Positions 12,663-56,339 of a stretch of DNA of 64,000 nt are shown here, piece by piece (positions within the stretch are counted from its first letter, which is position 1; each line of letters begins with the position of its first letter). Origin of the DNA: Candidatus Chisholmbacteria bacterium (GTDB taxonomy: Bacteria; Patescibacteriota; Microgenomatia; UBA1400; Chisholmbacteraceae). The translations under genes and the position numbers were made by a program. Under the pieces are notes generated by a model. The model had not been told where the DNA came from, did not search any database, and worked only from the letters and a program-made list of their open reading frames with translations. Location: the NCBI GenBank assembly GCA_963704905.1, contig CAVPHZ010000002.1, positions 634 through 64,633 of the forward strand. The letters run 5' to 3'.

Positions 12663-13035
12663 GCAGTGGTGTTTCTTCTTGAAGAGCCAAAAACAGGCAA
12701 TTGACTCATCATGAAGGATGGTGGTGGGGATAAACTACGATCTTTACGTATATACTCCGCCAGTTTACACGTATGTTTGGGATCACATGATCTATTGGTA
12801 TGCAAGAGAACAGTTATGATAATCTACCAAATGATTATGGATATAGAGATCTCCAGAGGCTGAATAATTTTTATTTATTAATCGAACCAGATGACAATAC
12901 AAGACAGAATTGACGGATGGAAAGGTAACTTTACCAGTGAAGGTCAATCTACTCAAACCTGGCATCTCAACAGTGGCATAACCATAGAAAAATGGGAAGC
13001 AAATTCAAAGACAACTGAAGAGATACGCTAATCAC
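12663..13035 (+). promoter_or_regulatory. only sizeable non-coding gap in the window; presumed promoter/5' leader for the downstream YfhO-like operon
   Basis: About 370 nt without a convincing ORF, AT-rich, sitting between a pseudogene and a run of ATGA-coupled genes. No confident -35/-10 pair could be picked out by eye. Confidence 0.3.
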
Positions 13036-32503: not shown

Positions 32504-32554
32504 AATTTTCTCAACAGGTTTGTCTATAATAGCAGGAGAGAACCTATTCTAGCT

Positions 32555-38843: not shown

Positions 38844-41093
38844 ATGAAAAATAAGCTAGCTCTATTCTGTCTTTTACTTCCAATTGTCATTTTCTTTAAC
38901 CCAGTTATATTGAGGGGAAAAATGCCAATCCCTGCCGACACAATTGTCGGACTCTACCATCCATATAGAGATGTTGTCTGGAACGGGCTTACAGCAGGAG
39001 TACCATTTAAAAATTTTCTTATTACTGATGCTGTTCGACAACAATATCCATGGAGGAAACTTGCATTTGATGTTTTAAAAAAGGGTCAATATCCTGGATG
39101 GAATCCGTATACTCATGCTGGAACACCGTTGGCTGCCAACATCCAAACAGCTCTCTTCAACCCACTAAATATTTTGTATTTACTTTTTCCCTTCAATCTG
39201 GCTTGGACGTTTCAAGTAATGAGTCAACCGATCTTACTTTCATTGTTTATGTATTTATATCTTCGAAAAATCGGAAGATCAAAAGAGGCAAGTCTGTTAG
39301 CAAGCCTTGTATTAAGTTTTTGTGGATTTTCAATAGCTTGGCTTGAGTGGAATACAACACTTCATACACTTGTTTGGTTACCTGCTAGCCTTCTAGCCAT
39401 CGAGAACATCTTGGAAAAATCTTCCCAAACAAGATGGTATTTGCTCCTTGTGTTCGCGCTCTCTAGTATTCTCTTTGCTGGTTTTCTACAGACGGCATTT
39501 TATATCTACACTCTCATCGCTGTATATATACTGTTCCGAATACAGTCATCAGAGAATCGAGAAAGACGAAGTAAGCTTCTCTCTCAGTTTTTCGTACTTG
39601 GTGTTTTAGTATTAGCGATTACCTCAATCCAATGGCTGCCGACAATAAGGTTTATCCAAAATTCAGCCAGAAGTTTTGATCAAGGAAATGTACTCGGTCG
39701 AGAAGATTGGTTTATTCCGTGGCAACATCTTGTTCAATTTATCGCACCGGACTTTTTTGGTAACCCAGCAACCTTGAATTATTGGGGTGTATTTAATTAC
39801 GTAGAATACATCGGATATATCGGCGTTGTACCTTTAATATTCGTTCTTCTTGGACTGCGTACTAAAGAAGATAAGCACCTTCATCAAAAGCGATTCTTTA
39901 TTTTTTCACTGCTCACCGCGTTGTTATTCGCGACAAACAATTTCATTGCAAGAATACCTTTCCATCTACATATTCCTCTGATTTCCACTGCTCAGCCGTC
40001 AAGACTCATGGTCATTATCGATTTTTCATTAGCGGTGTTAGCAGCATTCGGTGTTGATTGGTTCTTGAGTAATTTAATAAATAATGAGATGAGGATTCTA
40101 CTGGAACGAACAGGAAAGGTTGTCGGGTTACTTTTATTCATTCTCTTTGGTCTCTGGACAATCACTTTTGTATCAGGAGGGACGTTTGAAAATATTTCTC
40201 CAGAAAATCTCCATGTGGCCCAACGAAATCTTATCCTTCCATCCGGGTTTGTTCTTCTCAGTAGTATCATCTTATTTGGGGGATTACTAAGTAGTCATCA
40301 AGTAAAAAAACGCAAAAATGTCATTCAATCGTTAATATTCACAATACTGTTTCTCATTACCGTTGCTGATCTCTTTCGCTTTGCCTGGAAATTTACACCA
40401 TTTTCTAATGCAGACTACCTCTATCCCAAGACCGAAGTAATCAAATTTTTAGAAAAGGATCAGTCAGTTTGGAGATATATGACTACAGACAGAAGAATCA
40501 TTGCCCCAAATTTTTCCATTTCTCACAAATTTCAGACAATTGAGGGGTATGACCCAATTTATCTCAAACGATATGGTCAGCTTATTGCAACAGCCCAACG
40601 TGGCCAACCAACATTGGATGAGGTTGAATTCCACCGCATTATCCGTCCGGACAATTTCGAGTCACCTATTTATGATCTGCTTAATGTGAAATATATTCTT
40701 GCACTGCGTGACATCGACCATTCAAAGCTTCAGAAAGTATTTCAAGAAGGGGAAACAAGAGTGTATGAAAATATGAACGTTCTGCCTCGAGCATTTATAC
40801 TCCCAGATTATCAGGATGTCTCAGAAATGAACCAGTTAAGCATGGCTTTTGAGGTTACGAATCAAAATATCCGCCATACTGCTCAAATTACCTCCTACGA
40901 GGAAAATGAAGTTGAGCTAACCGTTGAGGACGATCAAGGTGGCATGCTGGTGCTTGCAGACGTGTACTACCCTGGTTGGAGCGTCACTATTGATGGGTCT
41001 CCAGCAGAGTTAAAACCTATGTTTCACGCCCTGCGTGGTACAATTATCCCATCTGGGCGACATGAAGTTATCTATCGTTATTCCCAACTATAA
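38844..41093 (+). CDS. YfhO-family GT-C membrane glycosyltransferase
   Basis: YPGWNPYTHAGTPLAANIQTALFNPLNILYLLFP and C-terminal VYYPGWSVTIDGSPAELKPMFHALRGTIIPSGRHEVIYRY. Confidence 0.85.
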   Translation: MKNKLALFCLLLPIVIFFNPVILRGKMPIPADTIVGLYHPYRDVVWNGLTAGVPFKNFLITDAVRQQYPWRKLAFDVLKKGQYPGWNPYTHAGTPLAANIQTALFNPLNILYLLFPFNLAWTFQVMSQPILLSLFMYLYLRKIGRSKEASLLASLVLSFCGFSIAWLEWNTTLHTLVWLPASLLAIENILEKSSQTRWYLLLVFALSSILFAGFLQTAFYIYTLIAVYILFRIQSSENRERRSKLLSQFFVLGVLVLAITSIQWLPTIRFIQNSARSFDQGNVLGREDWFIPWQHLVQFIAPDFFGNPATLNYWGVFNYVEYIGYIGVVPLIFVLLGLRTKEDKHLHQKRFFIFSLLTALLFATNNFIARIPFHLHIPLISTAQPSRLMVIIDFSLAVLAAFGVDWFLSNLINNEMRILLERTGKVVGLLLFILFGLWTITFVSGGTFENISPENLHVAQRNLILPSGFVLLSSIILFGGLLSSHQVKKRKNVIQSLIFTILFLITVADLFRFAWKFTPFSNADYLYPKTEVIKFLEKDQSVWRYMTTDRRIIAPNFSISHKFQTIEGYDPIYLKRYGQLIATAQRGQPTLDEVEFHRIIRPDNFESPIYDLLNVKYILALRDIDHSKLQKVFQEGETRVYENMNVLPRAFILPDYQDVSEMNQLSMAFEVTNQNIRHTAQITSYEENEVELTVEDDQGGMLVLADVYYPGWSVTIDGSPAELKPMFHALRGTIIPSGRHEVIYRYSQL

Positions 41094-41964
41094 TGGAGCG
41101 AAGCTCCTAAGAAAAAATCTCCCAAAAATAATCGAAGCAGCTAAGAATGCGGAAATTATTGTTGTCGATGATGCATCAAGCGACAACAGCAGATCCATAG
41201 TACGAGAATTTTCTGACAAGATTATTCTTATTAAGAAAGACGTTAATCAAGGTTTTGCTCGAGCCTGCAACGACGGCGTGAAAAGAGCTACAGGAGAGAT
41301 CGTTGTCCTTCTCAATAATGATGTAACTCCTGAAAAAAACTTTCTCTCGTTCTTGAAAACACACTTTAAAGACCCTCTGGTATTCTCAGTTGGGAGTGCA
41401 GAAATAACTGGAGAAACAACTAGGGGAAAAGCAGTCGGAGAGTTCAAGAGAGGTTTTCTTGTACATTCAGAAGCCAAGAATAGTAAGCCAGGATTCACGC
41501 TTTGGTCATTTGGAGCAAGTGCAGCCTACGATAAGAAAAAGTGGAACCAGCTGGGAGGCATGGATTCAATGTTCCGCCCCGCCTATTGGGAAGATATAGA
41601 CATCTGCTGGAGAGCCTGGAAAAAAGGCTGGAAAGTAATGTTTGAGCCAATGAGTCGTGTGCATCATGATCCGGAAAGTACCAACCTGAACGTCTTTGGA
41701 AGAGCGCGCATGAAAACCATGTCATACAAAAATCAAATCTTATTTGTATGGAAAAATATTGAGGATCTAAAATTACTGCTCGCCCATCTGGTATGGCTTC
41801 CAATCCACATCATTTCCTCGCTTTTTACAGGGGATGGCGCTTTCCTGCATGGTTTATTCAACGCCGTAGTTCAATTGCCTGAAGCACTACATAAAAGAAA
41901 TCTTCATACAAGCAAGACGAAGAATACAGACAGCCAAATACTGGAAATGTTTAAAAAGATATGA
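41062..41964 (+). CDS. GT2 glycosyltransferase (RfbF/WbbL-like subfamily)
   Basis: LSIVIPNYNGAKLL...IIVVDDASSDNS...NQGFARACNDGV...VLLNNDV. The start was taken at the Met of MKLSIVIP; the ORF-track start 41035 is the alternative. Confidence 0.8.
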   Translation: MKLSIVIPNYNGAKLLRKNLPKIIEAAKNAEIIVVDDASSDNSRSIVREFSDKIILIKKDVNQGFARACNDGVKRATGEIVVLLNNDVTPEKNFLSFLKTHFKDPLVFSVGSAEITGETTRGKAVGEFKRGFLVHSEAKNSKPGFTLWSFGASAAYDKKKWNQLGGMDSMFRPAYWEDIDICWRAWKKGWKVMFEPMSRVHHDPESTNLNVFGRARMKTMSYKNQILFVWKNIEDLKLLLAHLVWLPIHIISSLFTGDGAFLHGLFNAVVQLPEALHKRNLHTSKTKNTDSQILEMFKKI

Positions 41965-43613
41965 GAAAAAGAGTTTTCATACTGGTTTCAATAGTTCTAC
42001 TTGCTGCTGTCCTTCGATTTTATGAGATAGGAAAAAATCCTCCCAGTCTCAATCTGGATGAGGTTGCAATTGGCTACAACGCCTACTCAATTTTACGAAC
42101 AGGAAGAGACGAATATGGAGAATCATTCCCACTCTCATTTAGATCGCACGATGACTATAAACCACCTCTGTACATTTATCTGACTGTTCCATCAGTAGCA
42201 GCCTTTGGTCTAAGTGAAATTGCCGTGCGATTTCCTTCGGCATTTTTTGGTACAGTATCAGTTCTAATGATCTATTTTCTGGCGAAAGCGCTTATCGACG
42301 CGCATGTCGATCGGATTGGTCAGGAAAAAATTGCACTCCTCTGCTCATTTTTGCTAGCAGTTAATCCGTGGCATCTTCAATTTTCTCGCGCCGGATTTGA
42401 AACAAACGTCGCCTTATTTTTCTTCATGACCGGTATCTGGGCGTTTTTAAGAGGGATGAAGAAGAACGGATATTGGTGGGTACTTACCGCTGTTATGTTT
42501 GGCTTGTCAATGTATACCTATCAAGCAGCGAGAGTATTTATCCCGCTGATGTCTCTCAGCATGTTGATCCTATATTGGAAACAAAGAATGACACACGTAA
42601 AACAGGTGATCCTTGCAGGCATTGTATTTGTTCTGATAGTTCTTCCACTTATACCGATTGCGACCTCTACAGCCGGTGTTATGCGCTTTAAGGGAACGAA
42701 TGTATTCACCCAACCTGGTTTAGTTGAGGATGAAGTGGAGAGATCCTTCGTTGATGCAGACAGGCAGGATGCATTCTCAATGAAAGTTCTCCATAACCAG
42801 AAAATAGCTGCCACGCTAACCATAGCTGAAGGTTATTTAAAACACTTTCGTCCGGATGTATTGTTTCTGGGGAGAAACGGTCCACCATATAATTACACGC
42901 CGAACGTTGGTTTGTTCTACATCATTGAATTGCCATTGATGCTTTGGGGATTTGCCAAATTGTCTTCAAGAAGTAACAAAGCAATACAGCTCTCTTTCTT
43001 CTGGCTCCTGCTTGCACCAGTTGCAGCCGCCCTCACATGGGATGTTCCGAGCTCTACAAGAACCATGCTCATGTTGCCGCCGCTGCTTATATTCACGAGT
43101 GTTGGAGCATATGAGTTTTTTATTAAAAGGGATATAACTCATAGGTTCGGTGCTACCATACTAGGTTCAGCAGTCCTGCTTACATTGGTAGGAAATATTT
43201 CGTACTATCTACACCAATACTACATTCATGCACCACTTGAATTTGCAGATGCTTGGCAATATGGATACAAACAAGCAGTGGAGTATGCGGAAAGCCAAAA
43301 AGGCAAGTACGATAAAGTTGTTGTATCCACCTACCTCAAGCAGCCTCAGAACTTCTTCGCTTTTTATTCAAAGTATGATCCTAAAACGTATATTGAAAAA
43401 GATGGTGGAACAGTATCAGGTGGATTTCTCGAGTCGAGAAATAAATTTGATAAATACGAATTTCGTCATATTGAATACGCTGATAACGAATGGCAAGGAA
43501 AGATTATGTTCATCGATCTGGAGATTAAACTCACGGAAGAAATTCGCAGCAAAGCAATAAAAACTATCAATCTTCCAAATGGGGAACCATACATAGTCAT
43601 ATCTGAGTTATGA
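41961..43613 (+). CDS. ArnT-like GT-C membrane glycosyltransferase (GT83-like), first of tandem triplet
   Basis: LNLDEVAIGYNAYSILRTGRDEYGESFPLSFRSHDDYKPPLYIYL is the ArnT/PMT_2 loop-1 signature with the DE and KPPL motifs. The conserved NPWHLQFSRAGFE block is shared with the 43610, 45490 and 51465 genes. Confidence 0.85.
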   Translation: MRKRVFILVSIVLLAAVLRFYEIGKNPPSLNLDEVAIGYNAYSILRTGRDEYGESFPLSFRSHDDYKPPLYIYLTVPSVAAFGLSEIAVRFPSAFFGTVSVLMIYFLAKALIDAHVDRIGQEKIALLCSFLLAVNPWHLQFSRAGFETNVALFFFMTGIWAFLRGMKKNGYWWVLTAVMFGLSMYTYQAARVFIPLMSLSMLILYWKQRMTHVKQVILAGIVFVLIVLPLIPIATSTAGVMRFKGTNVFTQPGLVEDEVERSFVDADRQDAFSMKVLHNQKIAATLTIAEGYLKHFRPDVLFLGRNGPPYNYTPNVGLFYIIELPLMLWGFAKLSSRSNKAIQLSFFWLLLAPVAAALTWDVPSSTRTMLMLPPLLIFTSVGAYEFFIKRDITHRFGATILGSAVLLTLVGNISYYLHQYYIHAPLEFADAWQYGYKQAVEYAESQKGKYDKVVVSTYLKQPQNFFAFYSKYDPKTYIEKDGGTVSGGFLESRNKFDKYEFRHIEYADNEWQGKIMFIDLEIKLTEEIRSKAIKTINLPNGEPYIVISEL

Positions 43614-45139
43614 GTAAAAAGAGATATATATTGTTTTTTTGTGCAATAGTTTTACTGGCGGCAGCTCTCCGTTTTTATCGCCTCTCCTCTACACCACCGG
43701 GCTTGTACTGGGATGAGGTCTCTATAGGATACAATGCATATTCGATTCTTCTCACTGGAAAAGATGAATTTGGGGAAAGCTACCCTTTAATATTTAAAGC
43801 CTTTGGAGAATTCAAACTCCCGATATACATTTACACAACTGCTGCGAGTATTGCTCTATTTGGAATAACAGATTTTGCTATCCGCTTTCCCTCGGCATTG
43901 GCCGGATCTCTTTCAGTCGCAATGATAATTATATTGGTTGCTGAAATGTATCCAAGGAAGCGCAGGTCAATACTACCACTCCTGGCAGGATTCTTTCTGG
44001 CAATAAGTCCCTGGCATATTCAATTCTCACATGCTGGATTTGAAGCAAATCTCGCATTATTATTTGTAATATCAGCTCTAGTTGCTTTTCTTCAAGGTTT
44101 ACGGGGGAGGCGCTATGGACTGGTAATTTCAGTGATAGTATTTCTTCTTGCGTTCAATACTTACAACAGCGCAAGAGTATTTGTTCCACTACTGATAGGT
44201 GCTATTACTCTGATTTATCGAAAACAGCTTAAAGGAAGAGGCAAAGAAATTACTCTCGCTCTAATTATTGGCACGCTTGGGTTACTTCCAGTTCTCCCAC
44301 AATTTATTTCAGGTGAGGCTCTCATTCGGGCTCGGTCAGAAAGCATTTTTAACAGAGAAAATGCGATGTCGGAGATGATGAAGAATTATCTTAGTAACTT
44401 TGACACAACCTTTCTTTTCTTCCGCGGTGATCAAAATGGGCGTCATAGCGTGAGAAAATTGGGGATGCTTTATGTATTTGAATTACCACTGATAGTAATC
44501 GGATTGGGTCAGGTATTAAAAAACAGTAAGGATAACAAACAAGGAAAACGTTTACTTATAAGCTGGCTGTTACTTGCACCCATGCCCACCTCACTCACAA
44601 CCATTAACCCGCATGCGATTCGGTCACTAAACATCATGCCAGCTTGGCACATACTCACCGCAATTGGATTAGTAAAAATCATTGAACAATTAAAGAAATA
44701 TAAGATCCATTTGCGTTATATGTTCGCTGTAATAACTTCACTGCTGATCATGTACAACATAACCTTGTACCTGCATCAGTACTATGTGCATTACCCAACG
44801 GTTACTGCACTCGATTGGCAAGACGGTCTCAAAGAAACTGTTCAGATTATCTCATCCCGATTTGATGAGTTCGATGACATCTATATCTCAGATACGTTGC
44901 CGCCAATCTATATTGGCTACTATCTTCCTGTGAAACCGTGGTTGTATCAGCAAATGAACACCGATGAGAGCATCGGAAAACTTCATTATTTTAAACATGC
45001 CTGGGAAGTCGAGAAATCAGAATCAAGCAAGGTATTGTTTATCGCACCACACTGGCAGAAGCCAACAGAAGGAACACCTTTCCAGGAAGTAAAAATGATC
45101 AACGGTGACACAGTGTTTACTATATGGCAGGAGGACTAA
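43610..45139 (+). CDS. ArnT-like GT-C membrane glycosyltransferase (tandem paralog)
   Basis: GLYWDEVSIGYNAYSILLTGKDEFGESYPLIFKAFGEFKLPIYIY and SPWHIQFSHAGFEANLALLF. ATGA coupled. Confidence 0.85.
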   Translation: MSKKRYILFFCAIVLLAAALRFYRLSSTPPGLYWDEVSIGYNAYSILLTGKDEFGESYPLIFKAFGEFKLPIYIYTTAASIALFGITDFAIRFPSALAGSLSVAMIIILVAEMYPRKRRSILPLLAGFFLAISPWHIQFSHAGFEANLALLFVISALVAFLQGLRGRRYGLVISVIVFLLAFNTYNSARVFVPLLIGAITLIYRKQLKGRGKEITLALIIGTLGLLPVLPQFISGEALIRARSESIFNRENAMSEMMKNYLSNFDTTFLFFRGDQNGRHSVRKLGMLYVFELPLIVIGLGQVLKNSKDNKQGKRLLISWLLLAPMPTSLTTINPHAIRSLNIMPAWHILTAIGLVKIIEQLKKYKIHLRYMFAVITSLLIMYNITLYLHQYYVHYPTVTALDWQDGLKETVQIISSRFDEFDDIYISDTLPPIYIGYYLPVKPWLYQQMNTDESIGKLHYFKHAWEVEKSESSKVLFIAPHWQKPTEGTPFQEVKMINGDTVFTIWQED

Positions 45140-45481
45140 TTGGAAGGATTTAGTTGCACACACAATGGCATCCTAAACGATGTGCCACACCAACTCTGGG
45201 AAGCGATTTCCAGTGACGGTGGTGGTACCCCTTTGCTGGTAACAAGGGTTTTGCATAATAAGCCGCTTTTCTTTGCAGTAAACTATCTCCGTTGCTATTT
45301 TCACTATCTGTCCCCTCATTTTTTCGCGCAGCAATTTGGACCAGGGGTTGCTCTTATAATTGTTGCGCTGATCTTCATACTTTGGAGGCAGGGAGGACAA
45401 AATTGGAAAGTTGCCAAGATCATTATTCTGCTCTATCCCATTCTATTGGTATTTGAGCTGCAAACGAAGCTATTTCGATAA
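45140..45481 (+). CDS. hypothetical small protein (113 aa) with two hydrophobic segments; possibly a gene remnant
   Basis: An ORF fills the gap between two ArnT-like paralogs exactly; no recognisable motif; an antisense ORF of similar size exists. Coding status is uncertain. Confidence 0.3.
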   Translation: MEGFSCTHNGILNDVPHQLWEAISSDGGGTPLLVTRVLHNKPLFFAVNYLRCYFHYLSPHFFAQQFGPGVALIIVALIFILWRQGGQNWKVAKIIILLYPILLVFELQTKLFR

Positions 45482-45489
45482 ATCGCCTA

Positions 45490-47121
45490 ATGAAAAATAA
45501 TACAGCCATGATTGTAATCATTGTGTTAGCCGCCTTTTTAAGATTTTGGAATCTTGGTCAAAACCCACCTGCATTGTACTGGGATGAAGCCTCCCTTGGA
45601 TATAATGCCTATTCAATCTTAACCGCCGGGAAAGACGAACATGGTGAGTATCTTCCAGTTACCCGATTTATTGCCTTTGGCGACTACAAACCGCCAGGAT
45701 ACATCTACGCTACAGTTCCATTTATAGCATTATTAGGATTAACCGAATTTTCCATTCGCTCTGCCTCTGCATTAGCAGGAACACTGACTGTACTTGTTAC
45801 ATATTTGTTAGCAAAATTAATATTTAAGAAGAACCATTGGTCATTACATATTGGTCAATGGTCAGTATCACTGGCTGTCATTGCAGCGTTTCTGTTGGCT
45901 GTGAGTCCATGGCATTTACAATTTTCTCGCGGCGCTTTTGAAGCAAATGTTGCAACACTATTTTCAACAGCAGGAATCTATTTCTTCCTTCGGGGTATAA
46001 AAAATGGAAAATATTTGCTACCAAGCGCTATCCTTTTTGTTCTTTCAATGTACACGTTTAACACACACCGGGTGTTTGTTCCTCTGTTAGTTCTTGGACT
46101 AAGTCTACTGTACAGAAAATATTTATCAGCACATTTACGGTGGATAATTGCTTCAGCTATCGTGGGCTTAATCATTCTTTCTCCCCTGATTCCATTTATG
46201 GTATCTAGAGAAGGAAAATTACGCTTCGAAGAAGTCACCATCTTTAATAATCTAGAACCAATTGAAGTCGCAAATAACAGAATTGAGCAGGAAGGAAATT
46301 CCTTTCTTGCCAGACTTCAGCATAATCGCCGTCTGCAGTTTGCCAGAGATTTTGCGCTCCATTATGTAGATCATTTCAAGGGTAGTTTTTTATTTATCTC
46401 AGGAGACGTAAATCCACGGCTTGGAACACGTGAGAATGGTGTGCTCTACCCAATTGAATTACCACTACTTATAATCGGAATCTATGTTTTACTGAGAAGA
46501 AAGCGAGAAACTGCCTTATTACTATTTCTCTGGATCCTAATCGGATTGATACCAGCCGGAACAGCCAGAGAAACTCCACACGCGCTGCGAACCCTAAATA
46601 TATTACCGGCTCCACAGATACTGGTCGCTATAGGAATTGTTTCCGGATGTTCATGGATAAAACAAAAACGCCTCTATCTATCGGTGCTTATTATTTCTTA
46701 CTCACTGCTCATTACGTCCTACCTTCACACCTATCATTCCCACTACCCAAGACAATGGGCAGCATCATGGCAATATGGGTATAAGCAGTTAGTTCAGGAA
46801 GTGACAAAGATTGAAGATGACTATGACAAAATATTCATCACTCGAACCTATGGTAGGCCATATATCTATTTCCTTCTGTACCAGCAATATGATCCTGAAG
46901 CGTATTGGACACAAAGGAATGCAGAGCGGGATTGGTTTGGATTTTGGACAGTCAACGGTTTTGGGAAGTACATCTTTGGCAACCATCCAAGCCTAGAAGA
47001 ACGGGGAGAAGAAAGATGGCTTATCGTGAGTGGTCCAGACGGATTACCAGCAGAAGGCAGGAAACTATCTGAAATTACCTTTCCCAATGGAGAATTATCG
47101 TTCGAAATAGGAGAACTCTAG
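45490..47121 (+). CDS. ArnT-like GT-C membrane glycosyltransferase (tandem paralog)
   Basis: ALYWDEASLGYNAYSILTAGKDEHGEYLPVTRFIAFGDYKPPGYIY and SPWHLQFSRGAFEANVATLF. Confidence 0.85.
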   Translation: MKNNTAMIVIIVLAAFLRFWNLGQNPPALYWDEASLGYNAYSILTAGKDEHGEYLPVTRFIAFGDYKPPGYIYATVPFIALLGLTEFSIRSASALAGTLTVLVTYLLAKLIFKKNHWSLHIGQWSVSLAVIAAFLLAVSPWHLQFSRGAFEANVATLFSTAGIYFFLRGIKNGKYLLPSAILFVLSMYTFNTHRVFVPLLVLGLSLLYRKYLSAHLRWIIASAIVGLIILSPLIPFMVSREGKLRFEEVTIFNNLEPIEVANNRIEQEGNSFLARLQHNRRLQFARDFALHYVDHFKGSFLFISGDVNPRLGTRENGVLYPIELPLLIIGIYVLLRRKRETALLLFLWILIGLIPAGTARETPHALRTLNILPAPQILVAIGIVSGCSWIKQKRLYLSVLIISYSLLITSYLHTYHSHYPRQWAASWQYGYKQLVQEVTKIEDDYDKIFITRTYGRPYIYFLLYQQYDPEAYWTQRNAERDWFGFWTVNGFGKYIFGNHPSLEERGEERWLIVSGPDGLPAEGRKLSEITFPNGELSFEIGEL

Positions 47122-48480
47122 GTGAAGAACTACCTTCTCTTACTCTTGATGTTGCTTGCCTATAGTGCTCTTAGTTTCATCCTCATGCTGCGGGACGATT
47201 GGGCAATAAAAACGATTGGTGACTTATACCCACAACTAGAGACCACACTTCAATCGGCTCGCCAATATGGATTATCCCATCATCTCAATACAACACCAAC
47301 CTTGATGTATGTTCTCATTATTGCTTTCGCTTTCTGGTTTTATTTCAAAGTAGTAAATGGAAAATGGATAAAAAGCCAGTCTGCTAGAAGGATTGTACTC
47401 TGGTCATTGGTATTACATTCAGTTGTAATCATTTCCTACCCAGCTTTATCAACCGACGTATTTGATTACATTCTTCAAAATCGTGTGAAATTTGTTTACC
47501 AAGAAAATCTATGGGTGATGCCAATCATCTCCTACCCAAACGACCAGATGATCAATCTTGGTAGCTGGCAAAGAGTCGCGAGTGTCTATGGCCCCACCCA
47601 CCACTTTTTCGCCGCCGGCGCCCAAATTATTGGAGGAAGTGATCTATTTGGTAATATCTTGATGTTCAAGGAAATTGCTGTGATCTTCTCACTCATCACA
47701 ACAATGATGTTAAGCCACCTGATTCAAGAAGACAAAATGCGTAAACTCGCACTGTTTGCCATGAATCCATTGCTTATCATCGAAACAGCGGGGAACGCGC
47801 ACAACGATATCATCATGGTCGCATTCATGATCGCTGCGCTTATCGCTTTCAAAAGGAAACGATTCGTCATAGTTGGCGCGTTGTTGTCTCTCAGTACCCA
47901 GGTAAAACTGTATGGAGTTGTACTCACACCATTTTTGTTAATTCTACTCATGAGGAAAAAAGAGTATGGACATGCAGCACTAACATTGATTGGCTTGTTA
48001 GTAACAACAATGATTGGAGTGGCAGTCATGGGACCGCAAGCAGTAGCAAATTATCAACATCTCATGAAGTGGGTGTTTACCTTAAAACTTAATTCTCTTC
48101 CTAACCTCTTACACGTTCTTCCAAATTGGATGTTCGTATTCCCATTTATGATCATTGCCATACTTGGAGTAAGAAAAATAAAGTCACTCAGCAACGTCAT
48201 ACAGACATATATTGGTCTCACACTGTTGTACCTCATGTTTGTTATACCATTGTATTGGGCTTGGTATGTAATTTGGTACTTACCATTTTTATCACTTATA
48301 AAAAAAGCAAGTCTCATCAAAGTAGGAATAACATTAAGTCTGACATCTTCTTTGCAGTACGCCATACTCTTTCTATCACATCGTTTTAATTATGAACACA
48401 TCATCTGGACAATTATCATATACATCTTTTTAGTCGTTCCTCCAATTGGAGTGTATGCATTTACCAGACATGAAAAGTAA
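47122..48480 (+). CDS. GT-C-like polytopic membrane protein, DUF2029/GT87-like (GTG start)
   Basis: STDVFDYILQNRVKFVYQENLWVMPIISYPNDQ...VYGPTHH...NPLLIIETAGNAHNDIIM; paralog of the 6580 and 48446 genes. Confidence 0.6.
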   Translation: MKNYLLLLLMLLAYSALSFILMLRDDWAIKTIGDLYPQLETTLQSARQYGLSHHLNTTPTLMYVLIIAFAFWFYFKVVNGKWIKSQSARRIVLWSLVLHSVVIISYPALSTDVFDYILQNRVKFVYQENLWVMPIISYPNDQMINLGSWQRVASVYGPTHHFFAAGAQIIGGSDLFGNILMFKEIAVIFSLITTMMLSHLIQEDKMRKLALFAMNPLLIIETAGNAHNDIIMVAFMIAALIAFKRKRFVIVGALLSLSTQVKLYGVVLTPFLLILLMRKKEYGHAALTLIGLLVTTMIGVAVMGPQAVANYQHLMKWVFTLKLNSLPNLLHVLPNWMFVFPFMIIAILGVRKIKSLSNVIQTYIGLTLLYLMFVIPLYWAWYVIWYLPFLSLIKKASLIKVGITLSLTSSLQYAILFLSHRFNYEHIIWTIIIYIFLVVPPIGVYAFTRHEK

Positions 48481-49933
48481 TAACATTAAAACACTTGGTA
48501 TGAAGTTAAGCTTCTTCTACCTTTTCTATGCACTGTTAAGTTACTTGATTCTGCTTCGCGACGAGTTTCTTTTGGAAAGGATCTCAGTTCTTACGAACAC
48601 CCCGTTGATATTGGAGAAAGGCAGGATATTGGCAAAAGTATTGCGTGTCAATAGTATTCCAACACTTTTTCTCTTCATCATAATTTTCGTTTTGTTTTAC
48701 TTCTATGCCAAAACACTCAGACGGTTGACGCATGAAACTGATGCTAGAGAGACTAAGCGAGTTATCGTCACCTTTTCCTTGATATTCATGGCGATCTCAA
48801 TATTTTCCTTTCCCTCACTTTCAACTGATGTATTTGACTACGTTGCAAGTAATAGAGTGTTGTTCGTTCACAACTCAAATCCTTGGCTTCATGCTCCTGT
48901 GGAATTTCCAACTGATGAATTTATTTATCTCGGTTCCTGGAAGTTTCGTGCGTCGGTATACGGACCTGTGCAGTTCGTTTTTTCATCGTTAGTCCACACA
49001 ATCGCTCAAGACAATCTCATTGGTAATATCATCGGATTCAAGATTATGAACGCTGCATTTTTTCTCGCATCAATAACAATCATAAAAAAGTGGCTAGAAA
49101 AATATTCATCCGACTCTGTCGTATTTGGATTAGCCATCTTTGCTTGGAATCCGCTGGTACATATTGAGATTCTTGGAAATGCTCACAATGACATCATCAT
49201 GGGGTTTTTCTCGCTCTTATGCATGTATTTTCTCTTCGAAAAAAAAGTAATAAAAGGTGCAATAGCGCTATCACTTGCAATATTGGCTAAAGTTACAGCG
49301 GTGATATTTATCCCAGTCATCGCTATCTGGATGTTTCAAAAGCAAAAGAACTCCAGTCTCATGAGCTTTTTGTCAGCCACTGTATCAACCACACTCATAG
49401 GTTTCTTAAGTCTTGGAGATGGACTTGGAGGATTTATTGACAACCTAGGTGTACAACTTGGCTTATATCTGCGTTCACTGCCAACCATCATTCGTTTTAC
49501 ATTTCTCTCACTTGGTTCAAGTATGAACCAGGCCCAATGGGCGGAAAAGCTCTTCACCATACCACCATATCTATATCTGTACGCTTTCCTTGTTAGAAAA
49601 GTAAGAAACATAGGAATACTAGAAGTACTCGTTTCAGCCATGCTGATCTACTTGCTCCTTGTCTCACCAATGCTTCAGCCGTGGTATCTAGTTTGGATTC
49701 TGCCGCTTGTTGCTCTCCTCAGGCAGAGTAGAGTGCAAATAGCTGCAGTAACGATGAGCTTCAGTAGTTTACTCCACTATGTGGTGCTCTTTACTTCATA
49801 TTATTTCTCTCCTTTAAATTTTATTTGGCAAATTATTATGTTTCTCACCATTGCAATACCGCCACTCATTGTCTGGTTTATTCCTAAATCTTGGTATACT
49901 CAACTAGTCAGGAGGATAAATCCATACCTATGA
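48446..49933 (+). CDS. GT-C-like polytopic membrane protein, DUF2029/GT87-like (tandem paralog)
   Basis: STDVFDYVASNRVLFVHNSNPWLHAPVEFPTDE...VYGPVQF...NPLVHIEILGNAHNDIIM. The start is ambiguous (Met at 48446, 48470 or 48500). Confidence 0.6.
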   Translation: MECMHLPDMKSNNIKTLGMKLSFFYLFYALLSYLILLRDEFLLERISVLTNTPLILEKGRILAKVLRVNSIPTLFLFIIIFVLFYFYAKTLRRLTHETDARETKRVIVTFSLIFMAISIFSFPSLSTDVFDYVASNRVLFVHNSNPWLHAPVEFPTDEFIYLGSWKFRASVYGPVQFVFSSLVHTIAQDNLIGNIIGFKIMNAAFFLASITIIKKWLEKYSSDSVVFGLAIFAWNPLVHIEILGNAHNDIIMGFFSLLCMYFLFEKKVIKGAIALSLAILAKVTAVIFIPVIAIWMFQKQKNSSLMSFLSATVSTTLIGFLSLGDGLGGFIDNLGVQLGLYLRSLPTIIRFTFLSLGSSMNQAQWAEKLFTIPPYLYLYAFLVRKVRNIGILEVLVSAMLIYLLLVSPMLQPWYLVWILPLVALLRQSRVQIAAVTMSFSSLLHYVVLFTSYYFSPLNFIWQIIMFLTIAIPPLIVWFIPKSWYTQLVRRINPYL

Positions 49934-51468
49934 AAGATAAATTCAGTGTATTGAAACTCACCTCTCAGGATATTTGGCTAAGTCTAAGTTTAGCGATAGG
50001 ATATTTTCTAACAAGATTAACCAATCTTAGACTCTGGCCAATCTTTACAGACGAGGCAATCTACACGCGCTGGAGTCAAATTGCGCTTCATGATGCTTCA
50101 CTTCGCTTTATTCCGCTCACCGATGGAAAACAACCTCTTTGGCATTGGATCACTATGGCTTCCATGAAAGTCATATCAGATCCGTTAGTGGCCGGAAGAG
50201 TTGTTTCAACAATTTCAGGATTTATAGCCTTGGTTGGTATATGGTTTCTCGCACTCGAAGTCTTCAATAAAAAAAATATTGCCTTCATTGCTTCATGGCT
50301 GTATCTCATCGCACCTTTTACATTATTATATGACCGCATGGCTTTGGTCGATTCGATGCTTTCCATGTGGGGAATCTGGGCAGTATATTTTGGGATAAAA
50401 ACTGCCAAAATGTTGAGACTTGATCTTGCGATGATCACCGGATTTGTGATTGGAGCGGGACTACTCACAAAATCACCATCAATTTTCTTTGAATATCTCT
50501 ATCCACTTAATCTTCTTTTTATTACAAATAAAAAAAGTGTAGGACGATGGATAACTCTACTCATTCCGACCTTCATCATTGCTGAAGCCATGCGAAACAT
50601 CATGCGCCTTTCTCCCTGGATGCATATGATTGCACGAAAAAATCTTGAGTTTGTTATGAGTTTCCCGGAATTTTTCCACACCCCGTTTAAATGGTTTTGG
50701 GGAAACCTTCCTTCCCTTTGGAGATGGTGGACTGGTTCACTTACCTGGCCAATAATGCTAACTGCGATCGTTGGACTCATACTGGTACTTCTTCCGCAAA
50801 AACACATACTTTCACTGAGAAAGAAGTGGAGAACTATAAGCTATCTAGCTGTTTTCGCAATGGTTCCTTTTCTTACGGCAGCAGCTTTTGGAAAGGTGAT
50901 ATTTGCCCGCTACTTATTGTTTGTGACACCAGCGTTATTCCTAATTGCTGCTGCAGCCACAGACACCGTACTGAACCTTGTTAAAAACGTAAGCGCAAAA
51001 ATAGTCTTCATGATCTTTATATCAATTTCTGCCCTGTACGTGGATTACAAAATTATTACAGATCCAATTACTGCGCCAATAATTAGCGCTGATCGCGATC
51101 AATATGTAGATGGATTTCCGGCCGGTTGGGGTATCGATGAAGTAATCGAGTTTTTGAAACTAGAAGCGCAGTCTCAGCAAATATTTCTAGGCACACAAGG
51201 GACGTTTGGTCTCATGCCAGCCAGCTTTGAACTTTATTTATGGGACAATCCAAACATCGAGATAAAAGGATATTGGCCGGTTTCCAAAGTTCCTGAAGCT
51301 GTGACAATGAAAGCAATTTCCAAACCTACATACTTCATATACTACGAGTCAAACGAGGATCAGATTCCTCAGCAAGAGAACCTTGAGCTCATCAAAAAGT
51401 TTAAGAAAGGATCCAGCGATAGATACATGTACTTCTATAGAGTCTATCCAATGGAAATTGCAGTGTGA
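49930..51468 (+). CDS. ArnT/PMT-like GT-C membrane glycosyltransferase (divergent)
   Basis: PIFTDEAIYTRWSQIAL...PLTDGKQPLWHWI resembles the ArnT loop-1 (DE ... PL..W) signature; multi-TM. Start taken at the internal Met giving an ATGA overlap. Confidence 0.6.
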   Translation: MKDKFSVLKLTSQDIWLSLSLAIGYFLTRLTNLRLWPIFTDEAIYTRWSQIALHDASLRFIPLTDGKQPLWHWITMASMKVISDPLVAGRVVSTISGFIALVGIWFLALEVFNKKNIAFIASWLYLIAPFTLLYDRMALVDSMLSMWGIWAVYFGIKTAKMLRLDLAMITGFVIGAGLLTKSPSIFFEYLYPLNLLFITNKKSVGRWITLLIPTFIIAEAMRNIMRLSPWMHMIARKNLEFVMSFPEFFHTPFKWFWGNLPSLWRWWTGSLTWPIMLTAIVGLILVLLPQKHILSLRKKWRTISYLAVFAMVPFLTAAAFGKVIFARYLLFVTPALFLIAAAATDTVLNLVKNVSAKIVFMIFISISALYVDYKIITDPITAPIISADRDQYVDGFPAGWGIDEVIEFLKLEAQSQQIFLGTQGTFGLMPASFELYLWDNPNIEIKGYWPVSKVPEAVTMKAISKPTYFIYYESNEDQIPQQENLELIKKFKKGSSDRYMYFYRVYPMEIAV

Positions 51469-53063
51469 AGTGGAAAAACAAAGTAATCATCGCAATCATT
51501 CTCTTTGCCGCAATCTTACGATTCTATCAACTTGGCAATAATCCGCCGAGTATAGATTGGGATGAAGCATCATTAGGGTATAACGCGTATTCACTTCTCA
51601 AAACCGGCAGAGATGAATATGGTAATAGTTGGCCCATCTCAATTCGATCATTTAATGATTACAAACCGCCACTCTATGTTTACCTCTCAGTACCTTCAAT
51701 TGCAGTATTTGGATTAACTGAGTTCGCAATACGCTTCCCTTCCGCACTACTCGGAACGGTTGCTATAGGGGTATTGTTTCTTCTGGCGAGAGAATTGATC
51801 CAGGGCAAGCAGAAAAATCACTTTCCTGAGATTGCTGCTTTCCTTCTTGCAATAAGCCCGTGGCATCTGCAGTTTTCTCGAGTCGCCTTCGAAGCCAACA
51901 TTGCACTAACTTTCTTCATGATCGGGGTGTACTTTTTGATGAAGGCATTAAATAAAGCGTCAAGCGGGTATTTCGTCGCATCATCTGCGTTATTTATAGC
52001 AGCGATGTACTCGTATCATTCAGCGCGATTAGTTGTCCCAGTCTTTCTTAGTATTTATCTACTTGTGCACAGAAAGAATTTCTTCGCACAAATTAAACAA
52101 GCATTTCCGGCAATAGCTATCGGTCTTGTACTTCTGATTCCATTAGGGATAACAATTATGAAAGGATCAGCACAGTCGAGATTTTCCACCGTAAGCATAT
52201 TTACCAATCCGGGTATTTTCACCAATGAACAAGAAAAAATAGACAGACAAAGGGTTTACTGGAATGAAGACGAAGAACAAAAGAGTTTATTTTCTATTTT
52301 TCACCATCGATGGATCGTACTCTCAACCATCATAACCGAAGGTTATCTTGATCATTTTAACCTTGATTTCCTATTTCTAAAATCCGATGGCATTGGCAGG
52401 CATAGTGCAGTCGGGATGGGGCTGCTGTACTACTGGGAATTACCGGCAATTCTTATCGGACTCTACTTAGTAGCATCCCAAGATAAAGAGAAATTAAAGC
52501 TTATTGTACCTTGGTTATTATCTGCTCCTCTGGCTGCTGCGCTTACCACTCAGACACCTCATGCTGTCAGAAGCCTTATCATGCTTCCTCCTCTGGTTCT
52601 GATCATTGCATATGCAGTTGATTCTATACAAAAAAGCTGGCTTAAAATTGGTCTATCACTGATTATCGCATTAAATACGCTACACTACCTTAATCTCTAC
52701 TATATTCACACTCCTGTAGAGCGTTCTCATGATTGGCAGTATGGGTATAAACAAGCGTATCAATTTGCTTACCAATATGAGAACGATGTCGAGGAAATTA
52801 TTATGACAACCGAGTACGATCAGCCGTATATCTTTATGTTGTTTTTCAATCAAATTGACCCTGCAGGCTACCAGCCAGATTCTGAGCAAGGAGCTCAGAG
52901 AATTGGGAAATACTCATTTAGAAAAATTAACTTCCAAGAAGACAGTAAACTCTCAGACAGATTACTAATTGGCAGCCCAAATGAAATTCCAGATACTGCA
53001 CAAATAATAGATACCGTTTACTTTCTCAATGGAGAATCAGCATTTTATATCGTAAAAACATGA
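51465..53063 (+). CDS. ArnT-like GT-C membrane glycosyltransferase (GTG start)
   Basis: SIDWDEASLGYNAYSLLKTGRDEYGNSWPISIRSFNDYKPPLYVYL and SPWHLQFSRVAFEANIALTFF. GTGA overlap with the upstream stop. Confidence 0.85.
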   Translation: MKWKNKVIIAIILFAAILRFYQLGNNPPSIDWDEASLGYNAYSLLKTGRDEYGNSWPISIRSFNDYKPPLYVYLSVPSIAVFGLTEFAIRFPSALLGTVAIGVLFLLARELIQGKQKNHFPEIAAFLLAISPWHLQFSRVAFEANIALTFFMIGVYFLMKALNKASSGYFVASSALFIAAMYSYHSARLVVPVFLSIYLLVHRKNFFAQIKQAFPAIAIGLVLLIPLGITIMKGSAQSRFSTVSIFTNPGIFTNEQEKIDRQRVYWNEDEEQKSLFSIFHHRWIVLSTIITEGYLDHFNLDFLFLKSDGIGRHSAVGMGLLYYWELPAILIGLYLVASQDKEKLKLIVPWLLSAPLAAALTTQTPHAVRSLIMLPPLVLIIAYAVDSIQKSWLKIGLSLIIALNTLHYLNLYYIHTPVERSHDWQYGYKQAYQFAYQYENDVEEIIMTTEYDQPYIFMLFFNQIDPAGYQPDSEQGAQRIGKYSFRKINFQEDSKLSDRLLIGSPNEIPDTAQIIDTVYFLNGESAFYIVKT

Positions 53064-53803
53064 AGAAAAAGCCAAACATCATTATCGTCATGCCTGCGTA
53101 TAATGCGGAAAAAACAATTGAAAAAACCGTTAGTGATATTCCGAATGAATTTGCCAGTGAGATCATTCTCGTCGATGATGGTTCGACGGATAAAACAGTC
53201 GAGATTGCTAATAATTTAAAGCTCACTACCTTTACACATCCAAATAATTTAGGATACGGAGGAAACCAAAAAACCTGTTACTGGGAAGCCCTCAAAAAAA
53301 ATCCAGAAGTTGTAGTCATGATTCACCCCGACTATCAATACGATGCCACGCTCACAGAAGAGCTGGTTCGCCCTATTCTTCAGGGACGATACGATTTTAT
53401 GTTTGGCTCTAGGATTCGTTCAAGGCTCGAGGCACTAAAAGGGGGTATGCCTCAGCATAAATATTTCTTTAACCGATTCTACACGTTGCTAGCTAATATG
53501 GTTCTTGGAGTCAACTTCACAGAACACATGAGCGGAATGCGTGCCTACAGTAAAAAGGCTCTCAAGACCATACCTTTTCAACGGTTTTCAAACGATTTTA
53601 TTTTTGACCAGCAAATGACCATTTCAGCGATTTCATATGGTCTACGGATCGGCGAAATTCCGATTCCGGTCCGCTATTACTCAGAATCATCTTCAATTCA
53701 ATTATTACCAGGAATTAAATTTGGAATTGAGAGTTTACTCATTCTTGTACAATATGTCTTTCATCAATTGAAACTCACCCAAAGTAAATTATTCAAAACA
53801 TGA
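53060..53803 (+). CDS. GT2 glycosyltransferase, polyprenyl-phosphate sugar synthase (DPM1/GtrB-like)
   Basis: IIIVMPAYNAEKTI...IILVDDGSTDKTVEIA...GYGGNQKT...IHPDYQYD...FGSRI. Confidence 0.85.
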   Translation: MKKKPNIIIVMPAYNAEKTIEKTVSDIPNEFASEIILVDDGSTDKTVEIANNLKLTTFTHPNNLGYGGNQKTCYWEALKKNPEVVVMIHPDYQYDATLTEELVRPILQGRYDFMFGSRIRSRLEALKGGMPQHKYFFNRFYTLLANMVLGVNFTEHMSGMRAYSKKALKTIPFQRFSNDFIFDQQMTISAISYGLRIGEIPIPVRYYSESSSIQLLPGIKFGIESLLILVQYVFHQLKLTQSKLFKT

Positions 53804-55551: not shown

Positions 55552-56339
55552 TACATAAGAAGCGCCTTTCGGTTGTCCTGGCGACCTATAATGAGAAAGA
55601 TAATATTAAAAATTGCTTGGATTCAGTAAAAGGTCTCGCGGAAGAAATAATAGTTGTAGATGGTTCATCAGAGGACGACACTCGAAATATTGCCAGAAAT
55701 CTAGGGGCCAGAGTGATTAAAACATCCAATAAACCAATGTTTCACACCAATAAACAAATGGCAATTGATAAAGCGAAAGGTGACTGGATTCTTCAACTTG
55801 ATGCTGATGAAGTAGTTGATAAAGAGTTATATTCTGAGATGGCCAATCTTCTAAATCAGGATAACAAGTATGCTGCATTTTCAATTTCACGAAAAAATTT
55901 CTTTCTCGGCAAATGGCTTAAAAAAGGCGGGCTGTATCCTGACCGAGTCATTAGATTATTTAAAAAAGGTAAAGCCTATCTTCCACAGAAAAGCGTTCAT
56001 GAACAGTTAGAGGTAGAAGGCAATGTTGGCGAACTTCATGGCCACTTGAATCATCACACAGCACCAACGTTTAGTCGATATATTACAAATGCAAATCGCT
56101 ACACATCACTAACTGCTGCTGAGCTGACAAAATCAGGGACAGAGACAAGCATGCAACAAACGATATACTATATTGTGTTTAAACCGCTGTCGATATTCTT
56201 CTCATTATTTGTTCGCCATAAAGGAATGTATGATGGGTACAACGGATTTATTTTTGCGTTATTCTCAGCGCTCCATTGGCCGATAGCCTATATGAAACAT
56301 TGGGAAAATATTCACGTCAAAAAGATAAACATCTCATGA
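55548..56339 (+). CDS. GT2 glycosyltransferase, WaaE/KdtX-like subfamily
   Basis: LSVVLATYNEKDNIKNCLDSVKGLAEEIIVVDGSSEDDTRNIARNLGARVI...WILQLDADEVV. Confidence 0.82.
   Translation: MIHKKRLSVVLATYNEKDNIKNCLDSVKGLAEEIIVVDGSSEDDTRNIARNLGARVIKTSNKPMFHTNKQMAIDKAKGDWILQLDADEVVDKELYSEMANLLNQDNKYAAFSISRKNFFLGKWLKKGGLYPDRVIRLFKKGKAYLPQKSVHEQLEVEGNVGELHGHLNHHTAPTFSRYITNANRYTSLTAAELTKSGTETSMQQTIYYIVFKPLSIFFSLFVRHKGMYDGYNGFIFALFSALHWPIAYMKHWENIHVKKINIS

Follow-up and report, generated by a model that had tools for sequence, protein, structure and literature searches.

A tightly packed operon of GT-C glycosyltransferase paralogs, probably acting outside the membrane on lipid-linked sugars, in a Chisholmbacteria genome

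The stretch analysed here, called the window throughout, comprises 64,000 nucleotides (nt) of contig CAVPHZ010000002.1 from a Candidatus Chisholmbacteria bacterium. Positions 41035 to 56339 carry a run of open reading frames (ORFs), all on the plus strand, whose junctions are either ATGA-type overlaps of 4 nt or gaps of 0 to 8 nt. Together they form a single, tightly packed operon in a genome of the Microgenomates group (Patescibacteria, or candidate phyla radiation, CPR). It encodes seven integral-membrane GT-C glycosyltransferases, namely four paralogs (genes A to D), one protein of a sister subfamily (gene E) and two GT87-like proteins. An earlier, sequence-only reading of the window had placed five ArnT-like genes and two embedded genes here, and all of these ORFs were confirmed on the plus strand:

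41961-43613, plus strand: gene A, clade-A GT-C protein, 550 amino acids (aa); PMT_2 51.4 bits; AlphaFold 2 (AF2) model with GT-C fold and a predicted local distance difference test score (pLDDT) of 89
43610-45139, plus strand: gene B, clade-B paralog, 509 aa; PMT_2 34.4 bits
45490-47121, plus strand: gene C, clade-C paralog, 543 aa; PMT_2 34.8 bits
47122-48480, plus strand: GT87/DUF2029-like GT-C membrane protein, 452 aa; PF09594 33.6 bits
48446-49933, plus strand: second GT87-like paralog, 495 aa from a TTG codon, start uncertain; 31% identity to 47122
49930-51468, plus strand: gene E, fifth PMT_2 gene, subfamily E, 512 aa; PMT_2 45.5 bits; AF2 pLDDT 94
51465-53063, plus strand: gene D, clade-D paralog, 532 aa; PMT_2 57.4 bits

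All five named genes scored above the gathering cut-off of Pfam PMT_2 (PF13231, 26.1 bits), with 34 to 57 bits, and this match together with the fold bore out their assignment to the GT-C enzymes of ArnT/PMT type. Their joint description as five ArnT-like genes stood only in part, as they belong to two subfamilies. The products of genes A, B, C and D are full-length paralogs with 34-37% identity and BLASTP E-values of 1e-88 to 1e-109. Gene E shares 16-22% identity with them and does not have the motif wording that had been quoted for the set. A profile comparison (hhalign) showed about 400 residues of subfamily E to be homologous to the four-gene family, with a probability of 98.6% and an E-value of 9e-16. 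Homologs of the gene E protein reached up to 73% identity, and subfamily E is a separate sister subfamily, better conserved than the four-gene family. The ATG at 49930, proposed earlier as the start of gene E, was supported by the presence of the exact 512-aa protein in NCBI/ENA, from which the longer version starting at TTG 49891 is absent.

The four paralogs had been said to share two motif blocks, and the alignment shows both of them in all four proteins. The first reads DE..GYNAYS..TG(R/K)DE.GE...(Y/F)K(P/L)P and the second SPWH(L/I)QFS(R/H)..FE. The same two blocks, in the first and second extracytoplasmic loops (EL1 and EL2), are the only stretches of the four genes that are detectable as DNA repeats (families D1 and D2), with a length of 80-83 nt and a nucleotide identity of 66-74%. 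DNA repeats longer than 83 nt or above 76% identity were not found among the paralogs.

42039-42121, plus strand: EL1 motif block of gene A, PPSLNLDEVAIGYNAYSILRTGRDEYGE; repeat family D1; K67-P-P follows at 42159-42167
42354-42433, plus strand: EL2 motif block of gene A, LAVNPWHLQFSRAGFETN..., between transmembrane helices (TM) 3 and 4; repeat family D2
43694-43776, plus strand: EL1 motif block of gene B; repeat family D1
43997-44076, plus strand: EL2 motif block of gene B (SPWHIQFSHAGFE); repeat family D2
45565-45647, plus strand: EL1 motif block of gene C; repeat family D1
45895-45974, plus strand: EL2 motif block of gene C; repeat family D2
51543-51625, plus strand: EL1 motif block of gene D; repeat family D1
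51846-51925, plus strand: EL2 motif block of gene D; repeat family D2

Residue conservation was assessed over 279 family members. In the first block, D33 and E34 are each conserved in 98% of the members and D50 in 97%, while position 67 is Lys in 83% and Arg in a further 10%. In the second block, P136 (97%), W137 (95%), S142 (93%), R143 (97%) and E147 (91%) are conserved. Two further arginines, R242 (91%) and R367 (100%), stand out, and the position of Y187 is occupied by Tyr in 77% and by Phe in 21% of the sequences.

A search of the PDB with the single gene A sequence gave no match. A profile of 35 family sequences gave one match only, ArnT of Cupriavidus metallidurans (5ezm), at an E-value of 0.005. 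In the HMMER alignment to this structure, whose chain numbering is the native numbering plus 3 (the offset was checked), K67-P-P falls on ArnT K85-P-P, E147 on D158 and Y187 on K203. Alignment to Escherichia coli ArnT with hhalign, at low stringency and with a probability of 53%, placed D33/E34 on D31/E32, which correspond to D55/E56 of the Cupriavidus enzyme. Since the ArnT profile was shallow (the homologs seeded by E. coli ArnT were enterobacterial only, with at least 76% identity) and hhalign probabilities were 39-53%, the mapping of the DE pair is supported but not proven. The outcome that would have spoken against the sequence-only reading, DE and KPPL residues lying away from their ArnT positions, was looked for in these alignments and was not found. 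In ArnT, K85 is in contact with the carrier-lipid phosphate; D158, located in loop 2 just before TM4, touches the substrate sugar and pairs with K203; and the DE of loop 1 is indispensable in this enzyme class (PMC7801869). The PWH(L/I)QFS block had been taken for a periplasmic loop or membrane-edge motif. This agrees with its place in loop 2, between TM3 and TM4, with its final Glu on ArnT D158, and the alignment predicts that the block PWHLQFSR.AFE is the loop-2 half of the active site.

The structural comparison led to the same enzyme class. Strong structural matches of the clade-A AlphaFold model were to GT-C enzymes only (AglB/STT3, ArnT, ALG12 and Pmt4), and Foldseek retrieved the same set, with the best TM-scores to ArnT being 0.55-0.57. 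The gene E model had ArnT as its top Foldseek match (5f15/5ezm, E 7e-9). Two features by which the GT-C-A class is recognized were both observed, the multi-span fold with the N-terminal module of solved GT-C enzymes and the acidic D/E motif in the first extracytoplasmic loop, formed by D33/E34 in the paralogs and by D41/E42 in the fifth protein. Profile comparison aligned the latter pair, invariant in subfamily E, to D33/E34 of the four. Gene E has its own equivalents of the other motifs as well, with G-K67-Q-P (GKQP), a loop-2 YDR..D and an invariant T-K181-S at the position of ArnT K203, and the label ArnT-like suits it more than the four paralogs.

The two embedded genes had been described as DUF2029-like. 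For 47122 this was substantiated by a score above the gathering cut-off of GT87 (PF09594, the former DUF2029; 25 bits). The product of 48446 had no Pfam match at E ≤ 0.01 and belongs here only as a paralog of 47122, to which it is 31% identical over 463 aa, that is, over its full length (E 7e-66); a further paralog lies at 6580. Both proteins matched the MptA model TIGR03459 weakly (37 bits for 47122 and 59.8 bits for 48446), below its cut-off of 439 bits.

The C-terminal soluble domains of the paralogs had been called divergent. Their last 120 residues or so are indeed the least conserved part, with a mean identity of 26% compared to 57% in loop 1, but the domains are still homologous and alignable and have WQYGYK and NGE in common. 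The diversified acceptor specificity that had been read into this divergence is plausible.

Relatives were collected by a scan of one genome per species, which gave 579 confirmed stretches. From these, 80 loci were kept, chosen by similarity to gene A and spanning 10 kb to either side. The named candidate phyla among them are Chisholm-, Curtiss-, Gottesman-, Levy-, Roizman-, Woese- and Collierbacteria, and the closest of the 80 loci are from Chisholmbacteria, with 54-57% identity. The exact gene A protein is present in NCBI/ENA, encoded on a contig of 508,777 bp. More than 2,200 homologs of it were scored, the named ones from Curtissbacteria, Microgenomates or Patescibacteria, and an exhaustive profile search of public metagenomes gave 5,998 cluster representatives (50% identity) at E ≤ 1e-30. 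The four-gene family is a very large, Microgenomates-typical subfamily of the PMT_2/COG1807 type. Arrays are common: with family members taken as ORFs that score at least 100 bits against the family hidden Markov model, 74 of the 80 related loci contain 2-8 of them and each of the other six contains one. Public records of metagenome-assembled genomes titled 'uncultured Gammaproteobacteria/Pseudomonadales bacterium' (L003, L005, L008, L013, L014 and about 30 others) hold Microgenomates-type arrays, as does L078, titled 'Bacteroidia'; these record names look like placeholder or erroneous taxonomy.

In a neighbour-joining tree of the 279 members, the four window genes fall into four separate clades:

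Clade A: window gene 41961; 62 other loci
Clade B: window gene 43610; 10 other loci
Clade C: window gene 45490; 59 other loci, usually beside a clade-A gene
Clade D: window gene 51465; 22 other loci

The order of the genes recurs together with the clades. With g standing for a GT87-like gene, the recurring arrangements are ABC(g)(g)ED, CA, CD and gED. About 40 loci have a clade-C gene immediately upstream of a clade-A gene (CA); the CD order recurs in about 10 loci and gED in about 8. In the window, as in the Chisholmbacteria locus L001, the ABC and ggED units are joined. L001 shows the order of the window throughout (A, B, a small ORF, C, two GT87-like genes, E and D), with one extra copy upstream. 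The paralogs are 52-60% identical to their positional counterparts in L001 and 34-37% identical to their neighbours in the window, with orthologs as follows:

L001 11644-13179: ortholog of gene B, 52% identity
L001 13541-15175: ortholog of gene C, 60% identity
L001 19556-21187: ortholog of gene D, 54% identity

A further conserved neighbour precedes gene A:

41035-41964, plus strand: family 2 glycosyltransferase (GT2), 309 aa; Pfam Glycos_transf_2, 91 bits; 4-nt overlap with gene A

Orthologs of this GT2 gene, a conserved upstream partner of clade A, are present with 37-56% identity in 31 of the 80 related loci, and several of them end exactly where the clade-A gene begins.

Judged from these comparisons, the four copies represent ancient orthologous groups, each in a 1:1 relation with L001, rather than recent duplicates. 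The view of a recently diversifying tandem triplet is contradicted by the L001 orthologs, the four clades and the recurring gene orders. As every paralog retains an ortholog and gene neighbours of its own across deep lineages of Microgenomates, the copies would be non-redundant. Synonymous sites are saturated, given the protein identity of 34-37% and a nucleotide similarity confined to the two motif blocks, and candidate tracts of gene conversion are absent. The analyses of recombination and of the ratio of nonsynonymous to synonymous substitutions (dN/dS) that the sequence-only reading had proposed are therefore not informative here.

The gene following gene D in the operon bears on the donor:

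53060-53803, plus strand: small GT2 of 247 aa, similar to polyprenyl-phosphate sugar synthases; overlap with the end of gene D

Its NCBIfam matches were AglJ (71 bits), PpgS (57 bits) and dolichyl-phosphate hexose transferase (48 bits), all below the respective cut-offs. Orthologs with 72-74% identity follow the last family gene in the Chisholmbacteria loci L001 and L044, either directly or after 40 nt. The 53060 protein is a probable maker of the lipid-linked sugar donor. Together with a second GT2 at 59462, which scored 176 bits against the PpgS model, and a GT2 fused to a GtrA/DPMS transmembrane domain at 2659-3555, it points to lipid-linked sugar donors. The adjacent AglJ/PpgS/DPM-like GT2 genes and the lysine aligned with ArnT K85 lead us to predict that the enzymes use polyprenyl-phosphate sugars on the outer face of the membrane.

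We consider it likely that the operon encodes a set of non-redundant, polyprenyl-phosphate-sugar-dependent GT-C transferases working outside the cytoplasm. This explanation builds on homology and fold, on functional residues of ArnT being conserved in position, on the ancient orthology and synteny of the genes and on their packing into an operon. The mechanism, including the type of donor, the topology, the roles of residues in catalysis and the differing specificities, we infer by homology with ArnT, PMT and the oligosaccharyltransferases (OST). A cytoplasmic GT2 (the DPM1/AglJ/PpgS-like 53060 protein, or others elsewhere in the window) would place a sugar on polyprenyl phosphate, and the lipid-linked sugar would be flipped to the outer face of the membrane. 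There each GT-C enzyme would bind it and pass the sugar on to an acceptor at the cell surface. The phosphate of the carrier may be held by K67 of loop 1 and by the conserved arginines R242 and R367, and the acceptor may be activated by D33/E34 of loop 1, helped by the PWH..SR..E block of loop 2 with E147. Each paralog would most likely serve a different linkage or acceptor in the extracytoplasmic assembly or decoration of a surface glycopolymer or glycoprotein. The sequence of synthesis by GT2, flipping and transfer is suggested by the architecture of the window, which matches that of ArnC/ArnT, of Ppm1 with the mycobacterial GT-C enzymes and of CsbB/GtrA/YfhO (PMC8035078). The family is an uncharacterised subfamily of a known enzyme class, and represents neither a new mechanism nor a new class of system.

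Several points weigh against this explanation. The sequence links to solved enzymes are weak (E 0.005 for the profile match in the PDB and an hhalign probability of 53% to E. coli ArnT), so that the mapping of the DE pair relies in part on the resemblance of motifs. At the position of ArnT K203 the four have Tyr, which means that their active site is not identical to that of ArnT. Their best NCBIfam match, at 37-65 bits and below the cut-off, is Agl23, a protein to which flippase and not transferase activity has been assigned. The neighbour-joining tree carries no support values, and the clade frequencies are biased by the gene-A-based choice of loci and by the span of 10 kb to either side. 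Finally, searches of the literature turned up nothing specific on this family in CPR/Microgenomates.

Among the alternatives, the proteins could be protein O-glycosyltransferases like PMT (GT39) or TMTC, with each paralog modifying a different set of proteins that are secreted or exposed at the surface, for instance S-layer proteins, pilins or lipoproteins. NCBI names the homologs 'glycosyltransferase family 39 protein', many of them carry precomputed matches to PF02366 (PMT), and the conserved adjacent pairs C-A and E-D resemble the Pmt1-Pmt2 heterodimer. The PMT enzymes also share with the window proteins the GT-C-A fold, the loop-1 DE, the occurrence of paired paralogs and, as predicted here, a donor of the dolichyl- or polyprenyl-phosphate-mannose type. 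However, neither a MIR domain nor another PMT loop-5 module was found, TPR domains as in TMTC are absent, and Pfam recognized PMT_2 only. PF02366 was not detected at E ≤ 0.01 in any of the five window proteins; in view of the precomputed matches of many homologs, the N-terminal similarity of the family to this model is borderline. Structural similarity to Pmt is no greater than that to ArnT, OST or ALG12, and the surroundings, with a Wzx-type flippase, GT2 and GT4 enzymes and sugar-nucleotide enzymes, are typical of polysaccharide synthesis. A protein acceptor is putative, and we hold this alternative to be possible but rather unlikely.

A role as flippases or scramblases of lipid-linked sugars, like archaeal Agl23, serving the other GT-C enzymes of the window, appears very improbable. 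Agl23 (TIGR03663) is the best NCBIfam model for all four paralogs, with 43, 37, 38.5 and 65 bits, and Haloarcula Agl23 moved lipid-linked oligosaccharide in proteoliposomes and rescued a yeast rft1 deletion (PMC11182771). These scores are far below the TIGR03663 cut-off of 126.25 bits, and the fifth gene was unmatched. The matches cover the N-terminal 190 to 360 residues or so, depending on the paralog, and the 435-position model does not include the C-terminal domain of the family; the function ascribed to Agl23 is translocation, not transfer. The near-invariant DE, K-P-P and loop-2 Glu at catalytic or substrate positions of ArnT argue for catalysis, the conserved C-terminal soluble domain fits acceptor binding, and four conserved, non-interchangeable paralogs are hard to reconcile with a scramblase. 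On account of the low scores, the near-invariant catalytic-type residues and the non-interchangeable paralogs, an Agl23-type flippase was largely rejected.

The proteins are almost certainly not genuine ArnT, that is, enzymes transferring 4-amino-4-deoxy-L-arabinose from undecaprenyl phosphate to lipid A. The JGI labels homologs '4-amino-4-deoxy-L-arabinose transferase-like', and ArnT is both the sole PDB sequence match of the family profile and the top Foldseek match of the fifth protein. The ArnT equivalog model NF009784, with a cut-off of 567 bits, nevertheless scored only 17.4 bits for 43610 and 17.8 bits for the fifth gene and left the other three unmatched; no ArnA/B/D-type domains were detected among the window ORFs; and K203 is replaced by Tyr in the four paralogs. 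CPR/Microgenomates bacteria are not known to have lipid A biosynthesis. The score far below the cut-off, the missing arn genes in the window and the exchange of K203 effectively refute ArnT orthology. Just as improbable is an origin of the array by recent tandem duplication, with copies that are partly redundant and still subject to recombination or diversifying selection. In favour of it, the genes lie side by side on one strand, have the same length and diverge fastest in the C-terminal domain. Against it, the identities to the same-order L001 orthologs exceed those among the paralogs, each of the four clades spans many lineages, and the lack of long or high-identity DNA repeats excludes recent duplication or gene conversion.

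The preferred explanation, extracytoplasmic transfer from lipid-linked sugars by non-redundant enzymes, can be compared with known systems. ArnT (GT83; 5ezm/5f15 and the E. coli enzyme) resembles the window proteins in the GT-C fold, in size, in its C-terminal periplasmic domain and in PMT_2. It also has the loop-1 DE, the (E/Y)K-P motif at K85 and the loop-2 acid at D158, and its polyprenyl-phosphate monosaccharide donor comes from a small GT2, as predicted for the window proteins. For the fifth gene, the likeness extends to a T-K-(G/S) lysine equivalent to K203 and to ArnT being its best structural match. Unlike ArnT, the four paralogs have a second DE (D50/E51), a GYNAYS helix and the PWH..SR signature. 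There is no arn operon context in the window, and lipid A synthesis is not known from the host lineage. The window proteins differ from the OST enzymes AglB/STT3/PglB (GT66) in having neither the WWDYG nor the DK/MI motifs, a much smaller C-terminal domain and no sequence-level match; in addition, OSTs take diphosphate-linked oligosaccharide donors.

Parallels in organization are found in the mycobacterial GT-C line of cell-envelope assembly (EmbA/B/C, AftA-D, PimE, MptA/GT87, Ppm1/PpgS), where many GT-C enzymes act in series outside the membrane on polyprenyl-phosphate sugars supplied by GT2 enzymes. The window has about 20 GT-C genes, including GT87 members, along with PpgS-like GT2 genes. 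The lineages are unrelated, however, and no orthology above threshold was found (37-60 bits for MptA against 439). The Gram-positive three-component systems, which consist of a CsbB/GtrB GT2, a GtrA-type flippase and YfhO or another GT-C enzyme (PMC8035078), work on the same principle, combining a GT2 synthase, a flippase and a GT-C enzyme that acts outside the cytoplasm, and the window contains YfhO genes and a GT2-GtrA fusion. In contrast to the multi-paralog array of the window, these systems use one GT-C enzyme per modification and have known teichoic-acid acceptors.

Between genes B and C lies a small gene:

45140-45481, plus strand: small ORF of up to 113 aa, true start perhaps further downstream; conserved in synteny behind the clade-B gene

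It follows the clade-B paralog directly wherever clade B occurs, with lengths of 113-170 aa among the loci, and was found in syntenic position in L001 (13164-13523; 53% identity), L002, L005, L006, L008 (13129-13584), L010 (13058-13534), L012, L038 and L050. Its sequence has the motif C.H..I..DVP.QIWEA..DG...TR.LHNK...NY.RCYF.YLSP.F and 2-3 TM helices. Against the family profile, hhalign aligned it to family residues of about 268-389 with a probability of 78% (E 1.8e-5). In the paralog alignment, gene B shows a gap in the long periplasmic loop (EL4), part of which is missing, and it is without part of this same segment (about 268-389). The small ORF seems to encode a mini-protein that arose from the middle part of the family, and this could either act in trans as a partner or be the relic of a truncated paralog kept under selection. 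More speculatively, and with considerable doubt, C-A, gED and B with its mini-protein from the loop-4/TM8-10 segment of the family might be fixed working units of a Microgenomates-specific extracytoplasmic assembly line, perhaps obligate hetero-oligomeric GT-C complexes comparable to Pmt1-Pmt2 and EmbA-EmbB, with one enzyme completed in trans by the mini-protein. Such a line would approach mycobacterial arabinogalactan and lipoarabinomannan synthesis in complexity and would make a lineage-defining envelope polymer in organisms with genomes of about 1 Mb.

The observation of the paralogous genes and their conserved layout are confirmed, and they concern a large uncharacterised family. The family has about 6,000 cluster representatives at 50% identity and E ≤ 1e-30, and such arrays are the rule in Microgenomates. 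CPR/Patescibacteria genomes are tiny, yet at least 64 kb of a 509-kb contig, with about 20 GT-C enzymes, are devoted to surface glycosylation here. A life attached to other cells, or in dependence on them, is generally assumed for CPR bacteria, and surface glycans are therefore likely to be central to their biology. The residue map of D33/E34, K67, R143, E147 and R367, together with the conserved gene pairs, provides concrete targets for mutagenesis, co-expression and complex prediction.

Beyond the operon, the whole window is a nearly uninterrupted same-strand glycosylation island with a G+C content of about 40%, whose GT-C-type genes, about 20 in number, fall into at least seven groups of paralogs. 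Scans of the 64 kb for tRNA genes and for Rfam families were both empty, and promoter and terminator scans of the window remained at chance level, adding no information beyond compatibility with one long operon. The GT-C-type and flippase genes of the island are:

13036, 15339, 38844 and the split pair 27872/29011: YfhO-type GT-C genes
18436, 21141 and 53800: PTPS_related-type GT-C genes
4283, 7713 and 9073: PMT_2 genes elsewhere in the window
6580, 47122 and 48446: GT87-like genes
57403: PIG-V-like GT-C gene
25462: Wzx-type flippase

In addition, the island has about a dozen GT2 and four GT4 genes, methyltransferases, sugar-nucleotide enzymes, several epimerases and a GDP-mannose 4,6-dehydratase (1474). 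Some of its GT-C genes have unusual structures. The 905-aa protein encoded at 18436-21153 (plus strand) is an apparent fusion of two GT-C modules, with PTPS_related at residues 78-368 and PMT_2 at 608-748, and its C-terminal half (401-891) aligns with a separate 507-aa protein encoded at 9073-10596. One YfhO gene is present as two ORFs of 380 aa each (plus strand), of which 27872-29014 matches the N-terminal part of YfhO and 29011-30153 the C-terminal part; the cause is either a genuine split, a frameshift or an assembly error. The only stretch of the window without a long ORF, 11461-13036 (plus strand), contains overlapping short hydrophobic ORFs (11461-11940, 11837-12136 and 12378-12662) that resemble pieces of a membrane glycosyltransferase, and is probably a decayed or frameshifted GT-C gene. 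These fragments, the split YfhO gene and the double-module protein of 18436 suggest that GT-C genes are still being gained, fused and degraded. Finally, four large ORFs (32447-34480, 34446-36143, 22892-24427 and 24424-25449) gave no Pfam match at E ≤ 0.001. The proteins of 32447 and 34446 are paralogs of each other (28% identity, E 7e-61), and all four ORFs are candidates for further glycan-processing enzymes.

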